From Escherichia coli (lineage in GTDB: Bacteria > Pseudomonadota > Gammaproteobacteria > Enterobacterales > Enterobacteriaceae), in assembly GCF_044324875.1 (NCBI RefSeq), contig NZ_CP172185.1: a stretch of 64,000 bases of DNA, one strand, 5' to 3'. The translations under genes were made by a program, and so were the position numbers. Below the pieces are notes generated by a model. It was given only the letters and a program-made list of their open reading frames with translations. It did not search any database and was not told the DNA's origin. Position 1 is the stretch's first letter. The number at the start of each line of letters is the position of its first letter. Below are positions 20,247 through 26,482 of the stretch, in pieces.

Positions 20247-22898
20247 TTAGCGACAGATTGCTGTCTGCTGGTTCAGTAAGGTACCAGGAGAAACTTCAGG
20301 AAGCTTGTACTCGACAATACAGTTTGAGTTTTTATCTTTGCCCCATGAAACCTGTAATTTCCCTGACTGTGGAAGTCCAGTCAGATAAACCTGACCGTTT
20401 TCCGCGACAATGCTGCCATTTTTATTCTTTCCGTGAGTGACAATTGCACCGAATGGAACGCTCTTATTACCGTACTTCAACGTCATTAATACTTTCCCGC
20501 CGATTTGTGCATTAAATGTTGCTCTGGCAATAGCACCGTGAGTTGGGATGACAGTGACCACGGTTTCATCCAGTTCAACATTATCTGCAAGGGAATTCGC
20601 GTTAAGAGCGACACGATTTTCTCTATATTCTGTCGCAAATGGTAATATGGCATAGCCACGCCAGTCGGTATGAATACCGGTCTGGTTCTCTATTTTGACA
20701 TTATCAGCGCCAGGAGCCTTAACCAGAACCATTGTGTCGCCCAGCGGCTGTCCAAAGGTGATGCCATCAGCATGAGCAATAATGCCACCACTCATTCCGT
20801 AATAAATCTGGCTGCTGTCACCACTCCGACTGTAACCGACATTCGTATTACCGTAAGCTCCACGATAATTAAGAGAACTGTAACCACTGGTGCCAGACGA
20901 TGTATTACCCCCGTGGGTGTTACCGACCTGAACACTATAATTCAGGTTATTATCCGGCAGCAGAGTGCCATAAACTCCCGATAGATTGGTCATGCCGCCT
21001 TTCAAATCGTTTGACTTACTGTAACTGGCGTTTGAATTACGAAATGCCGACTGACTGTCTGTACGCATCCAATGACTGAAGGGAACATTAAGCGTAAAAG
21101 CAAGTAAATGATCCCGATCGTTTTGCCATATATTATTGGAATAGCTGTAATTCAGCGAAGTCGTAATATCACCAAACGGCACATTTAATCCAAATGATAT
21201 TTGCTGGTCGCTGCGTGACGTGTTCCAGTAACTTTGGCGACTGGCACTAAAAAATGTCGTACCGTAATTTCCAAGCTGCTGAGAGATGCTTATTTGTTCC
21301 TGACCACGCTTACTGTAGAACAGATTAAAATAATCAATAAATTGTGTCTGCTCGTTGCTGTCTCCGGTAGGAGGCTTGACGGTGTAACCACTCATTCGAC
21401 TGTAGGCACTGTCGGATAAGTTATAAAAACCTTGCGTAGAATAGCGATATCCTGCGACCTGGATATTGGTTCCCGTCTGGTAGAAGGATTTGCTGTAGAC
21501 GGATTTAATCGATTGCCCGCTGTGACGGGTGCCATCTGCAAGTGTCGTATTGGCCTGCGTGATATCGAAAGAAAAGGCACCAAAAAGTCCTAAATCTTTA
21601 CCAATACCAAGGTTGAAGGCCTGATAATCTTCTGCAATTTGCATTCCGCCATAAGGTGTCCAGTTTCCTTCCAGTCCATGCATCAAGCTACCTTGTATGA
21701 ACTTGGGGGAGCTTTGCAGGTTATTTCCACTACGATATTCCCCCATGGCAAGCGCATAACGCGTATATCCAGCACGTTGGAGAACCGGAACAGACGAATA
21801 AGGAACATATAATGTCTGAATACTGCCGTCTGCCTCTTTTATGGTTACTTGCAGATCACCACCATTGGCCGCAGAGTTGATATCATCAATAGTAAAAGGG
21901 CCGGGTGGGACAGTAGTCTGATAAACATCGTATCCATTCTGTTTTACACTCACTTGTGCGGTGCCGCGGGCAATACCATGAATCACCGGAGCGAAACCAT
22001 GTTGGCTATCGGGCAACATCGCTTCTGTTGAATTTATTTTGAGGCCACGAAAGTTCACACTATCAAAAATATCGCCATCGGTATAACTATCACCTACCGT
22101 TAAGCGTGAGCGTAAGGGAATAATGTCACGTTCAGCCGACGTATTGATATGCTGCCATTTATTGCTGTCAGATGAATTGCTACTCCCACTGTTATAACTC
22201 CACGTTGAGTTATCGCGCAGTCGCCAACTACCAATGTTGATGCCACTCTGTAAATTCAAATATGCATAGTTGGATTTTCCTGCATTATGGTTACTACGAT
22301 TATTAATAGAATTACCATTAAAACTATAGTTTAGAAGCCCAGCATTTATTCCTTCTTCCCACAGATCAGGAGAAACATAGCCGCGAGCCATTCTGCCAAC
22401 ATAAATTTGCGGAACGGAGAGTGACAGATGTTGCTGACCAACATCAAACTCAGTTGATGCGTCGGCCAAACGATCCTGAAGTGGTGTGCATGCGCTGTTG
22501 TCCGGCACATGTTTTTCTGCCGAATGTTCTTTATTGTCTAATAACGCTGATTTTTTTATGCCAAGACTGACTAGAAGATCTGTACTCAGGCATGGGATGA
22601 GATCTGCGTTATTATCATCTGCAATAAAAGTAATATCCCGACTAGTAATAAATTCGTCGTTCAAATAAATGTCGACCCGATATGTACCAGGTGGTGCCTC
22701 GCGTCCCTTAGTAAAGGCGGATAAATCGACAGATTCAGCAAGATCATTGCTTAAAAACCGTGGATTAAAATAATACTCTGCGTCAACGGGAAATACCGCA
22801 GTTGCTAAGCCAAGGGCAATGGTAAGCCGTGCAAAGCGAGGCAGTAGTAACACCTGATGCATACGATATGCCTTAAATGCGGCACGAAAGGCTGTCAT
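20247..22898 (-). CDS. ydeT: fimbrial outer-membrane usher, full length (FimD-like)
   Basis: 883-aa uninterrupted ORF of typical usher length; start may be at the internal MHQVLLL. The K-12 counterpart ydeT is remembered as a truncated pseudogene. Confidence 0.85.
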   Translation of the reverse strand: MTAFRAAFKAYRMHQVLLLPRFARLTIALGLATAVFPVDAEYYFNPRFLSNDLAESVDLSAFTKGREAPPGTYRVDIYLNDEFITSRDITFIADDNNADLIPCLSTDLLVSLGIKKSALLDNKEHSAEKHVPDNSACTPLQDRLADASTEFDVGQQHLSLSVPQIYVGRMARGYVSPDLWEEGINAGLLNYSFNGNSINNRSNHNAGKSNYAYLNLQSGINIGSWRLRDNSTWSYNSGSSNSSDSNKWQHINTSAERDIIPLRSRLTVGDSYTDGDIFDSVNFRGLKINSTEAMLPDSQHGFAPVIHGIARGTAQVSVKQNGYDVYQTTVPPGPFTIDDINSAANGGDLQVTIKEADGSIQTLYVPYSSVPVLQRAGYTRYALAMGEYRSGNNLQSSPKFIQGSLMHGLEGNWTPYGGMQIAEDYQAFNLGIGKDLGLFGAFSFDITQANTTLADGTRHSGQSIKSVYSKSFYQTGTNIQVAGYRYSTQGFYNLSDSAYSRMSGYTVKPPTGDSNEQTQFIDYFNLFYSKRGQEQISISQQLGNYGTTFFSASRQSYWNTSRSDQQISFGLNVPFGDITTSLNYSYSNNIWQNDRDHLLAFTLNVPFSHWMRTDSQSAFRNSNASYSKSNDLKGGMTNLSGVYGTLLPDNNLNYSVQVGNTHGGNTSSGTSGYSSLNYRGAYGNTNVGYSRSGDSSQIYYGMSGGIIAHADGITFGQPLGDTMVLVKAPGADNVKIENQTGIHTDWRGYAILPFATEYRENRVALNANSLADNVELDETVVTVIPTHGAIARATFNAQIGGKVLMTLKYGNKSVPFGAIVTHGKNKNGSIVAENGQVYLTGLPQSGKLQVSWGKDKNSNCIVEYKLPEVSPGTLLNQQTAICR

Positions 22899-22939: not shown

Positions 22940-23659
22940 TTACTGCATGGTTGCCTTAATACGCGGAGTTAATGCACCGTAATCATTGATCGTCTGAAAA
23001 CTGATATCCCCGGTTGCAGCATGCGGGATATCCACCGATACTTCACCTTTTGGCGGCACCATGGTGTTTGGGAGATTGCTATTTCCTGCTTTCAAATTTG
23101 TTACGGTAATGAAGTAGGGCGTTGGATTAATAAGAGTGAGTTTGCTGCCGCTGCGACGAAACCGAAGCATTGCAGGCGCTTCTTCAGGTGCCATTGCCAG
23201 GTTCGTGGGGCGATAAAACATTTTTATGCGGCTAATAATTGCCAGCTGTAATGTATTCTCATTCTTCTGATCTTTTTCCATAGCAGGAATAGCTTTAACA
23301 TTAACCCAGAACAGGCTTTCACGGTCGCCTGGTAACTGATGATTAGTGGCGTTGATTATCCGCAGCGTATTCTCTTTTTTACCTTGCATGGAAAAAAGCG
23401 GTGGCGTAATGACAAACTGGGTGTCTTTTTGGTCACCTGCATTTTCTATCCATGACTGAATGAGATAGACACTGGCAGGATCATTATTCGTGACAGGCAA
23501 TAAAACCTGTTTCTGGTTTGCCGGATAAATTACCCGCGTCGCACCCAGTGCGACAGCTGCGTTGGCAATGGTGCTATGGCAAGCAAAGAGCAATAAAAGT
23601 AACACTGTCGCCATAAAGGAAATAGAGTAGGGGGTACGCGTAGTTTGCATCTGATGCAT
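22940..23659 (-). CDS. periplasmic fimbrial chaperone (FimC-like)
   Basis: 239-aa ORF with signal peptide and PapD-like chaperone features; start codon uncertain. Confidence 0.85.
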   Translation of the reverse strand: MHQMQTTRTPYSISFMATVLLLLLFACHSTIANAAVALGATRVIYPANQKQVLLPVTNNDPASVYLIQSWIENAGDQKDTQFVITPPLFSMQGKKENTLRIINATNHQLPGDRESLFWVNVKAIPAMEKDQKNENTLQLAIISRIKMFYRPTNLAMAPEEAPAMLRFRRSGSKLTLINPTPYFITVTNLKAGNSNLPNTMVPPKGEVSVDIPHAATGDISFQTINDYGALTPRIKATMQ

Positions 23660-24012: not shown

Positions 24013-24576
24013 TTATAGATATTGAACTTTGAAGGTCGCATCAGCGTTTGCAGTACCAGCTACTGACTGCCCGAGAGCAATATATCGAGCCTGGAACGGC
24101 AATATATTCGTGCCATCAATCAAGTCAGTTTTAGCACTAAAAGTGGCACCATCAAGTATTAATACCTCACCCGTACGGTCCAAAATTTGAATACCGACAT
24201 TTTGGGCAGAGCCTGCCGCTGAACTCTGAAGCGCTAATGTGTCGTCATTACTGGTGACAGTAGTACCCAGGAATGCAACAGCTGCATTACTGGAAACATT
24301 GGTATCACAATCATTCAGCTTGATATTGAAGCCAACGGCGGAGCTGAGGTCACCCGCTTTAGCCAGACGAGAAGAACGGACCTGACCCAGCTCAACCGTT
24401 TGGTTCATTGATTCTGAATCAATCGCACAAGCGGCATTTACCACTTCACCTTTAAAATGAATAACACCGCCATTAACAGTGGTCGTTACTGATTCATCAC
24501 CCTCGGCTGCGCTTACCGCAGCAGACGACATCGCCAACACAGAAACGACAATCATACCGACATGTTTGAGTTTCAT
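24013..24576 (-). CDS. major fimbrial subunit (FimA-like, F9-type)
   Basis: ORF track start 24624; start [23 protein letters not shown] at 24576 preferred (signal peptide, GGAG RBS upstream); C-terminal ...TFKVQYL pilin strand. Confidence 0.85.
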
Positions 24577-25009
24577 AATTCTCCAAAATTTATATTTAAG
24601 TAGCTGAATAAAGAAAGTTAACAATTAAGTCATTCTGTTATTGCTTATAAAACAAGAATCATTCTTGATGGGATATTGCCCTGAGAATATAGTTTCCAGG
24701 GTTATTACATTTCACGAAGAACGATAATATCTTTAAATTACAAGGACACCTAATCACAACAAGTTTATTGCAGCACTTGTTGTAGAGAGTATTTGCAAAG
24801 ACATTTTATGTCGCTAAATAACATTACGATTTCATTATGCATGTTATTTATAAACAGCGACTAAACAGAATATTATTGCGAACAAGGGAAGTGTCAGGAA
24901 AGGTCAAGAGCGGCCAATGGTTTATATGGCTATAAAACATTAGCTATGGTTAATGTTTGCCTGGTGTAACTAACACGGAATTGCTCTAAACAGATAAGTG
25001 CAGGGTTTA

Positions 25010-25264
25010 TTAAAGCTGACCGACAGACTTTCTTAACCTGGTAATATCTCTCTTAGGTGACTCTCCAAACATCCGCGAATATTCCCGACTGAAATGGGAT
25101 AAGCTTTCGTAACCGACAGCATAGGCTGCAGTGGTGACATCGTAATGTTCATTCAGCATCAGTCGCCTGGCTTCATTGAGGCGTAGCCATTTCTGATACC
25201 GGAGTGGACTCATTCCCGCAAGCTGTCTGAATTGTTGATGGAAAGAGGGGGTGTTCATTTGCAC
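25010..25264 (-). pseudogene. yneL: AraC-family regulator remnant (C-terminal HTH only, yneL-like)
   Basis: 84-aa ORF containing only the second AraC HTH region (…GMSPLRYQKWLRLNEARRLM…); no N-terminal domain is encoded upstream in frame. Confidence 0.7.
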
Positions 25265-25544
25265 GCGGTTTGCCAGCCTGACTCTTCAACGCAGGGAAGA
25301 TGCGGCAAACGGCAAACCTGCATACCAGCCAGCCTATATCAGGTATGCACAGGCCAATCATGAAAGAGGAGAGGCTTTATGTTCTGGAACCCTGAAGTAA
25401 TAACGACGACCGTAAAATCGCTTCGCATCACTCAAATTCCATTTAACTATTCTGGGTTTGAGGGATATACATAATTGACTTCAGCACCAGAAACAGCATA
25501 ACAAACTGTTTTAAATGGATATTAATCAAATGACGATTCAAACT

Positions 25545-25579
25545 CACAGTTATGAACTCAGTTTTGGTTCATAACTGTG
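25545..25579. repeat. perfect 13-bp inverted repeat with 9-bp spacer
   Basis: cacagttatgaac-tcagttttg-gttcataactgtg; a related palindrome gttcatgaac lies at 25619-25628. Located between the AraC remnant and the accessory cluster. Confidence 0.6.
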
Positions 25580-25678
25580 TTAAACGCTGTCCATAAATCA
25601 CTCGATGTCACGTCTGTTGGTTCATGAACTGATCGTTCTAATTTTGTGATGTGCGTCAGGTTTTAGTGTTCAGTAATG

Positions 25679-26482
25679 TTACCTTTTACTCGATGATCGA
25701 TTGTTTAGCACCTCTCCCACAACCGGAGCAGCGGTAAATGCGTTTGGCCAGCCAGCATAGAAGGCGGCCTGGGTAACGATCTCACCAGCTTCCTCAACAG
25801 AAAGTCCATTATCCATTGCTCTATTGAGGTGATAGCCAATCTGCGCGCTCTGTCCGGATGCGATTAAGGCGCTGACCGTAATCAGGCTTCTGTCGCGGGG
25901 TTTCAGCGCGGGTCTTTGCCAGAGATCCAGGAAGAGTGGATCAGCAGTGAATTTAACCAGGCCTGGAGATATTGGGCCAACATTTTTTTCCACTGTCTCT
26001 GAACGCTGCTTTTCTGCTTCCTGATTGAGAGGAAGCAGGCCCGGAGAAGCTTCAGGAAGTGCATCTGCCGTGACGCCACGAGTTTCAAATACTGCTTTGA
26101 TCACGCTGACGGCTGACATTGCATTTGGCCAACCTGAGTAGAACGCCAGATGGGTAATGATTTCTGATAATTCCGCTGGCGTCACGCCGCTATCGAGAGC
26201 GACGTCAATATAGTGCTTAAGCTCGGCAGGCTGGTTGCGGGCAATCAGCATGGCGACGGTCACCACACTACGATCCCTCGGTGAGAGGGCGTCGCGTGTC
26301 CACAGATCTTCAGTAATAGCTTCGCGACCAAAGCGCGCGAGAGCCGGTGAGACGGAACGAATATCAGCTTCCGAAATCGCTGACGGTTCTATTTTCATCA
26401 TAGCTTTACCTCTTGTTTCCTCAGCATTGGCAAAATCAGAAATAACAAGCGACATAGCCGCTGCTGCAAGTACGCTTTTCAT
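25679..26482 (-). CDS. secreted tandem carboxymuconolactone-decarboxylase (CMD/AhpD-like) domain protein
   Basis: 267-aa ORF; signal peptide MKSVLAAAAMSLVISDFANA; two internally repeated ~100-aa CMD-like domains (DLWTRDALSPRDRS… and DLWQRPALKPRDRS…). Confidence 0.8.
   Translation of the reverse strand: MKSVLAAAAMSLVISDFANAEETRGKAMMKIEPSAISEADIRSVSPALARFGREAITEDLWTRDALSPRDRSVVTVAMLIARNQPAELKHYIDVALDSGVTPAELSEIITHLAFYSGWPNAMSAVSVIKAVFETRGVTADALPEASPGLLPLNQEAEKQRSETVEKNVGPISPGLVKFTADPLFLDLWQRPALKPRDRSLITVSALIASGQSAQIGYHLNRAMDNGLSVEEAGEIVTQAAFYAGWPNAFTAAPVVGEVLNNRSSSKR

Follow-up and report, generated by a model that had tools for sequence, protein, structure and literature searches.

A perfect inverted repeat in the leader of the Escherichia coli F9 fimbrial operon: probably an ordinary, weakly constrained stem-loop

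The closest described systems to the inverted repeat reported here are the fimS element of type 1 fimbriae, with its 9-bp inverted repeats and FimB/FimE, the leader stem-loops of the H-NS-silenced csgD, pap and fim operons, the H-NS downstream elements typified by the proU DRE, and the RNA thermosensors of the ROSE/fourU and cspA leader types. F9 fimbriae are the closest paralogue family of type 1 fimbriae (PMC7766294). These F9/Fml fimbriae play a part in chronic colonisation of the urinary tract, in colonisation of the bovine gut and in attachment to plants. Their operon is reported to be better expressed at about 20 C (PMC3966885; PMC7766294), and this temperature control is only partly explained: repression by H-NS has been shown and a translational component has been claimed.

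The F9 dyad resembles each of these systems in part. Like fimS, it is built of 9-bp arms and is found between promoter and major-subunit gene; unlike in fimS, the arms are 10 nt apart, sit downstream of the transcription start site and do not flank the promoter. It shares with the csgD, pap and fim leaders a transcribed dyad, a long, AT-rich and structured leader and a sigma-70 promoter, but it has no known sRNA, RNase or protein partner, shows no covariation and is disrupted several times within the species without compensation. As at the proU DRE, AT-rich DNA just past the start site of an H-NS-repressed operon is involved, except that H-NS binding at the position of the F9 dyad is predicted, that the dyad is less AT-rich than its surroundings and that its symmetry is irrelevant to H-NS. 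The thermosensor leaders are comparable in their length and structure and in the reported temperature control. Unlike the ROSE/fourU elements, however, the F9 hairpin lies 165 nt from the Shine-Dalgarno (SD) sequence, is predicted to stay folded between 18 and 42 C and goes with a change in SD accessibility in the opposite direction.

We analysed a stretch of 64,000 nucleotides of E. coli DNA (contig NZ_CP172185.1), called the window below; the features discussed are collected in Table 1. For the gene order we used the RefSeq annotation of a strain with 100% identity across the region. This annotation and the flanking ydeQRS and ydeP genes identify the operon as F9 (Yde/Fml), of the chaperone-usher type. 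Of three 5'RACE primers that were published for F9 in CFT073, two (4236 and 4237, at 24432-52 and 24490-508) fit the major-subunit gene exactly and the third in 14 of 16 bases. The identification as the F9 major-subunit gene in the first-pass annotation, which was made from the sequence alone, is thereby confirmed. The AraC-type fragment on the other side of the promoter has been described as the cryptic ECs2114/Z2199 (PMC7766294).

Table 1. Positions of the F9 genes, promoter elements and repeats in the window
Feature	Position	Strand	Basis or remark
-35 hexamer TAGTCG (18-bp spacer)	24858-24863	-	identity to CFT073
-10 hexamer CATAAT	24834-24839	-	identity to CFT073
Putative transcription start site (G), 251 nt from ATG	24827	-	transferred from CFT073 5'RACE
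F9 operon mRNA 5'UTR, 251 nt, 29.5% GC	24577-24827	-	start site transferred from CFT073
Dyad, right arm ACTTGTTGT (plus-strand letters)	24775-24783	-	5' arm of RNA hairpin, +45 to +53
Dyad, spacer TTATTGCAGC, 10 nt (RNA loop GCUGCAAUAA)	24765-24774	-	
Dyad, left arm ACAACAAGT (plus-strand letters)	24756-24764	-	3' arm of RNA hairpin, +64 to +72 of f9 mRNA
GCAATAAACT, 7/10 match to H-NS motif TCGATAAATT	24762-24771	-	motif scan; putative '+57' site
Second perfect inverted repeat, 10 bp, TAAATAACAT-N16-ATGTTATTTA	24815-24850		straddles -10 hexamer and start site
F9 major-subunit gene (fmlA / c1936 orthologue; annotated 'FimA')	24013-24576	-	RefSeq annotation
Chaperone gene	22940-23659	-	RefSeq annotation
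Usher gene, 883 aa	20247-22898	-	RefSeq annotation
ydeS, ydeR, ydeQ, then ydeP	past usher, left side	-	RefSeq annotation
AraC-family HTH pseudogene fragment, yneL-like	25010-25276	-	upstream of F9 promoter

The dyad at 24756-24783 reads ACAACAAGT-TTATTGCAGC-ACTTGTTGT, with perfect 9-bp arms around a 10-nt spacer, exactly as first annotated. Its arms cannot be extended by Watson-Crick pairs in the DNA (c24755 / a24784). Measured from the ATG of the major-subunit gene (A at 24576, minus strand), it lies 180-207 nt upstream, in good agreement with the earlier estimate of about 180-205 bp. The long AT-rich upstream region noted at the time is also found: the intergenic region 24577-25009 comprises 433 bp at 32.6% GC, compared to 47.7% for the whole window. 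The dyad itself is less AT-rich, at 35.7% GC versus 29.5% for the surrounding leader.

The window contains 21 perfect dyads with arms of 9 bp or more and loops of 3-20 nt, versus 4.0 +/- 2.1 in dinucleotide shuffles; genomes are rich in them, and the class as a whole is therefore not random. Two such dyads are seen in the 433-bp intergenic region, where 0.058 are expected (P = 0.056 for at least one and 0.0012 for at least two). For comparison, among 49 regions upstream of fimA-like genes in other Enterobacterales, 16 carry a perfect dyad of at least 9 bp, and these 16 represent only a few distinct orthologous elements. The F9 dyad is real and, in what is a post hoc test, mildly unlikely by chance.

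In strain CFT073, 5'RACE placed the f9 start site at a G located 251 nt upstream of the ATG, behind a promoter with the -10 element CATAAT, the -35 element TAGTCG and an 18-bp spacer (Wurpel et al. 2014, PMC3966885). These promoter elements and the start base are found letter for letter on the minus strand of the window, so that the start site maps to position 24827; the window strain would be expected to use the same one. With transcription starting there, the dyad occupies +45 to +72 of the 5'UTR and is not promoter DNA. Consequently, only part of the region that had been annotated as leader deserves the name: 24577-24827 is transcribed 5'UTR, while 24828-25009 is promoter and upstream DNA.

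The second perfect inverted repeat of the intergenic region has its arms at -23 to -14 and +4 to +13, overlapping the published H-NS motif predictions at +8 and +14. None of the 10 alleles examined varies in these arms, but such invariance is not significant (expected P ~0.15). This repeat may be a better operator candidate than the dyad at +45 to +72.

Since the dyad is transcribed in a mapped 5'UTR and is predicted to fold, the suggestion that it represents an RNA structure is a reasonable one. On the minus-strand RNA, the predicted hairpin has 9 Watson-Crick pairs, a closing U-G pair and a 10-nt loop, with a free energy of -11.2 kcal/mol (z = -3.6; a fold as stable is reached by 1 of 200 shuffles). 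The 254-nt leader as a whole folds at -51.9 kcal/mol (z = -2.88 against shuffles) and contains the hairpin in both its minimum free energy and centroid structures. The hairpin is the most stable local structure predicted in the leader, with a pair probability of about 1.0 throughout 18-42 C and no temperature-dependent change. Over the same range, the predicted accessibility of the SD, located at about +240 and thus some 165 nt from the hairpin, goes up slightly with temperature. No predicted fold pairs the dyad with the SD.

Several specific RNA functions were examined and rejected. An intrinsic terminator or attenuator is ruled out: the terminator scan returned nothing at the dyad, only 3 of the 9 stem pairs are G-C and the 3' flank GAUUAGGUGUCC contains no U-tract. 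An SD-occluding RNA thermometer is at odds with the distance, the stability and the direction of the accessibility trend described above. In these models, the hairpin is neither a terminator nor an SD-occluding thermometer nor a 5'-terminal stabiliser. Two upstream ORFs run across the hairpin, one from an AUG at +4 (19 codons) and one from an AUG at +24 (16 codons, ending just 3' of the stem). Both were rejected because they have no SD and because a 1-nt loop deletion present in 827 genomes shifts their frame. A search of 24400-25700 against Rfam (E <= 10) gave no meaningful match, only two noise matches outside the dyad.

Elsewhere in the leader, most alleles carry a CUCUC about 30 nt upstream of the SD that is predicted to pair with the SD GGAGA (alignment columns 212-216 / 244-248, about 24580-24584 and 24612-24616 of the window). 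The window allele has UUUCU in its place, and its predicted SD accessibility at 37 C is 0.46 versus 0.23.

We then compared the region among 5,426 complete E. coli genomes, 4,874 of which contain it, always at 90% identity or more. Allele counts are records of exact-allele BLAST matches, with one place per genome. The perfect dyad is found in two alleles: A1, the window allele with the loop gcAgc (630 records, plus 99 with one mismatch), and A4, with the loop gcTgc (435 records). Together these amount to about 1,065 of some 4,700 genomes, or about 23% of the region carriers. The commonest change is T24783A, which removes the outer pair in about 3,160 genomes, either alone (A2, 2,337 records) or together with the 1-nt loop deletion (A3, 827 records), and leaves a stem of 8 pairs in most E. 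coli. The substitution G24763T breaks an inner G-C pair (A5, 380 records), A24756T breaks a pair in one further sequence (L072), and a 10-bp deletion in strain EC12 trims the right arm to 6 bp. The loop is polymorphic too: apart from the deletion of 1 nt, most lineages carry A24772T. The core is predicted to be paired with a probability of about 1.0 in the window allele and about 0.95 in the majority alleles; G24763T brings it down to about 0.38. These natural alleles, whose predicted stems range from 10 pairs to mostly open, provide a ready allelic series for studying leader regulation.

One or the other arm is changed in about 77% of the genomes with the region, and the partner arm does not match the change. 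All four kinds of arm change weaken the stem, none is compensated, and RNAalifold on the ten alleles found 0 compensatory pairs. Variable sites make up 4 of 28 positions in the dyad (0.14) and 19 of 223 in the rest of the leader (0.085; Fisher p = 0.30), against 2 of 43 in the core promoter and 8 of 100 third codon positions in the adjacent gene. The dyad thus evolves no more slowly than putatively neutral sites, at an overall identity of 95% or more that gives such a test low power both ways. An 8-bp core of the dyad is kept in about 90% of genomes; because overall identity is at least 95%, its persistence carries no weight.

Outside E. coli, a scan for the major-subunit protein in one genome per species (GTDB) retrieved one E. 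coli-derived contig, followed by a Citrobacter protein at 76% identity. Comparison of the upstream region of Citrobacter sp. JGM124 with the F9 leader, by blastn and by global and local alignments, was no better than with shuffles (z = 0.4). There is thus no orthologous leader outside E. coli for a deeper comparison of the hairpin. Conservation in orthologous F9 promoters, which the first-pass annotation had named as the test of the dyad, comes out largely negative within the species, the perfect dyad being restricted to the minority given above. The Citrobacter region has an unrelated perfect 9-bp dyad of its own, TCTGAATAA-TCG-TTATTCAGA (L014, 1305-1325), located 196-176 nt upstream of the ATG, at nearly the same distance as the F9 dyad.

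Phase-variable control had been raised as a possibility for this operon, along with the statement that no longer inverted repeats flank the promoter as in a fimS-like switch. That statement overlooked an imperfect 15-nt inverted repeat (14/15), AACATTACGATTTCA at 24820-24834 and TGACATCGTAATGTT at 25135-25149, with 300 nt between its arms. It encloses both promoter hexamers (-10 and -35), a geometry similar to that of fimS. In other lineages the match falls to 13/15, because all other sampled alleles carry G at 24825, and the right arm lies in DNA that is replaced, and thus missing, in B2-type loci. A synthetic query for the inverted junction was covered to 80% or more in 0 of 4,186 genomes; the inversion directly tested in this way is only the one bounded by the 15-nt repeat. 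With a 601-bp query, all the matches listed were single collinear pieces. That assemblies do capture such inversions is demonstrated by a control: the E. coli E69 assembly contains fimS in the inverted state.

The RefSeq annotation of the 100%-identical strain has no recombinase gene within 9 kb on each side, where only fimbrial genes, the AraC-type pseudogene and oxidoreductase genes are present. Neither arm nor spacer has a second copy in either orientation within 1.2 kb on each side, and blastn and global and local alignments detected no similarity between the F9 leader and fimS. A fimS-like inversion is thus ruled out by the missing inverted junctions, recombinase gene and second site. A Pap-type Dam/Lrp methylation switch is ruled out as well, since 24400-25300 is devoid of GATC, a site that the rate in the window would predict about 1.6 times per 433 bp. 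The same is true of slipped-strand phase variation: in 24577-25009, runs of A/T stay below 7 and runs of G/C below 6, and no unit of 2-6 nt is repeated 4 times or more, so that homopolymer and short tandem repeat tracts are absent. Phase variation of F9 by inversion, methylation or repeat tracts is consequently not borne out, and the absence of a fimS-like switch stands despite the overlooked repeat. Of the polymorphisms that the comparison of isolates might have revealed, the inversion bounded by the 15-nt repeat was absent from these 4,186 genomes and indels were present, namely the 1-nt loop deletion in 827 genomes and the 10-bp deletion in EC12.

In the type 1 loci of Klebsiella, Raoultella and Enterobacter, a perfect 9-bp dyad, ATGAGTCAA-N11-TTGACTCAT, encloses the fimS IRR core TGGCCCCAA about 224 nt upstream of the matched region (L033, L037, L044-L047, L049 and L061). 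We take the ATGAGTCAA/TTGACTCAT arms in these loci to be putative FimB/E half-sites. One of the sequences, L033, carries a compensatory arm variant (ATGAGACAA/TTGTCTCAT).

At the DNA level, f9 is under repression by H-NS, which in vitro retards a 251-bp fragment of the promoter region that may not include +45 to +72 (PMC3966885). H-NS motifs have been predicted at -111, -103, +8, +14, +57 and +89 (Wurpel et al. 2014, PMC3966885). Our motif scan found nine matches of at least 7/10 to TCGATAAATT in 24577-24900, and the putative '+57' site spans the loop together with three neighbouring bases of one arm. The AT-rich DNA that contains the dyad plausibly contributes to an H-NS filament downstream of the start site. 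The dyad does not stand out within it, and H-NS needs no dyad symmetry. The fmlA gene is also listed as a direct Fur target in CFT073 from Fur ChIP/RNA-seq (PMC7157518). A Fur box at the dyad is ruled out, the best Fur-like match (12/19) being located away from it at 24648-24666; this match is weak and one of 123 of that quality in the window. It falls on a perfect 15-bp palindrome, CAAGAATCATTCTTG, at 24654-24668 (about +160 to +174).

The dyad is also touched by a deletion. The K-12-type F9 deletion takes out 3,282 bp, from the 5' part of the usher gene through the chaperone to the major subunit, with junctions at 21473|21474 and 24755|24756 of the window (L002, 3990-4010). One endpoint coincides exactly with the outer edge of the left arm and is outside the dyad, so that K-12 keeps the promoter, +1 to +72 and the 8-bp hairpin, fused to ydeT'. 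In about 1,444 genomes the leader query is only partly covered, and 17 of 18 sampled partial matches start at this junction. The junction also occurs with the 1-nt loop-deletion allele (L071). Its microhomology is only 1 nt (c), and the other endpoint adjoins a weak 6-bp inverted repeat, CCGTCT..AGACGG, at 21473-21502. The position of the endpoint at the dyad edge could be a coincidence or could result from hairpin-associated illegitimate recombination.

Another deletion was seen in E. coli O157:H7 NE122 (L012, 600-610). It spans 260 bp between AACAT direct repeats, at about 24564-24823 of the window, and removes the whole 5'UTR including the dyad as well as the first 13 nt of the major-subunit coding sequence. 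The -10 region is left adjoining the truncated major-subunit gene.

Because the dyad varies freely among strains and there is no phase switch, it is most likely an ordinary, weakly constrained leader structure, and we favour, with some reservation, the view that it is an incidental or weakly selected stem-loop at +45 to +72 of the F9 leader. The dyad would be transcribed as part of the 251-nt leader, 44 nt past the mapped sigma-70 start site, and would fold in the mRNA into a local stem-loop, of 9 Watson-Crick pairs and a U-G pair here and of 8 pairs in most E. coli, which would be one of several local structures in the AT-rich leader. As DNA, it would belong to a promoter-downstream stretch with predicted H-NS motifs. 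Such a hairpin would neither flip nor terminate transcription nor occlude the ribosome-binding site, and the dyad would not be a sequence-specific operator. The hairpin probably forms in vivo, with little regulatory consequence. Some observations speak against an incidental origin: the chance probability is about 0.06 for one dyad and about 0.001 for two, the 8-bp core is present in about 90% of genomes, the leader fold has a z of -2.88, and a difference of at least 6-fold between 18 C and 37 C in a reporter fusion leaves room for a functional RNA (PMC7766294). The main result is nonetheless that a candidate has been removed. The F9 promoter has no invertible, methylation- or repeat-based phase switch, and no sign of selection is seen in the dyad; the proposal of a conserved regulator site is not supported, given that arm changes are uncompensated and that conservation of the dyad does not exceed that of the remaining leader.

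The reporter in question is a translational fusion of the fmlA leader and five codons; its expression at 18 C exceeds that at 37 C by a factor of 6 or more (Holmes et al. 2020, PMC7766294). Temperature-dependent translational control was proposed on this basis, from two fusions that used different GFP variants (Holmes et al. 2020, PMC7766294). A 2025 transcriptome of CFT073 found F9 mRNA to be low and not thermoregulated, which leaves room for a post-transcriptional step. The hairpin might accordingly be a functional leader RNA element that serves cold-favoured translation of fmlA, mRNA stability or Rho access, for example by fixing the overall leader fold or by binding an RNA chaperone or an sRNA. 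Its rank as the most stable local structure, paired with a probability of about 1 from 18 to 42 C, and the excess structure of the leader over shuffles are in line with this proposal. We nevertheless rate it as unlikely, because the predicted folding shows no temperature change and SD accessibility rises with temperature, the opposite of the reported phenotype. The lack of covariation or of an Rfam match, the distance from the SD without any predicted pairing to it, and the difference in GFP variant between the fusions also weigh against it, as do the three independent arm substitutions and one deletion that weaken the stem without compensation, among them G24763T, with its pair probability of about 0.38 in 380 genomes. 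A more specific version, in which the hairpin is a required module of a cspA-like conformational sensor through which the leader exerts cold-favoured, post-transcriptional control of F9, seems very doubtful; were it true, T24783A and G24763T would tune F9 differently in phylogroups A/B1/E and in one B2 sublineage.

Alternatively, the dyad could act as a protein site in the DNA, either as an H-NS nucleation or bridging element or as a roadblock operator for an unnamed dimeric regulator. Its two-fold symmetry is perfect, +45 to +72 is a typical position for downstream silencing elements, and H-NS repression, fragment binding, the predicted 7/10 motif overlapping the loop and the 29.5% GC of the region all fit. 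However, the H-NS motif is weak and one of nine, the dyad is richer in GC than the leader around it and H-NS does not depend on symmetry. The half-site centres are 19 bp apart, a spacing unusual for dimeric helix-turn-helix operators. There is no second copy of arm or spacer within 1.2 kb on each side, and BLAST locates the sequence only once per genome. Half-sites are altered in about 77% of genomes without a matching change in the partner arm, which makes a specific dimeric regulator unlikely, and a palindromic operator whose half-sites are both conserved is rejected on the same ground. Overall, a role as a protein site is improbable. It is harder still to see the dyad as a site-specific recombination site or its relic, with recombinase half-sites around a crossover core and phase variation of F9 as the outcome. 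Arms of 9 bp around a 10-nt core just downstream of an outward-reading promoter, which resemble ATGAGTCAA-N11-TTGACTCAT of Klebsiella and Raoultella, the 14/15 repeat flanking the promoter with 300 nt between its arms, and the K-12 deletion ending exactly at the dyad edge could be read in this way. Against this, there is no partner copy of core or arm, no recombinase gene and no similarity to fimS, and the inverted junction is absent from all 4,186 genomes, although assemblies capture fimS both ways. The flanking repeat decays to 13/15 in other lineages and loses its right arm in B2-type loci, and the K-12 junction falls outside the dyad and not in its core. This recombination scenario is already largely refuted and we consider it extremely improbable.

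Further upstream, an oxidoreductase/LysR island of about 8 kb, absent from K-12, lies between the F9 operon and hipA in the window strain. A perfect 13-bp inverted repeat, CACAGTTATGAAC-N9-GTTCATAACTGTG, is located at the edge of this island (25545-25579). It has no U-tract after it; its neighbours are the AraC-type pseudogene on one side and, on the other, a carboxymuconolactone decarboxylase-family gene, whose 3' end faces it.
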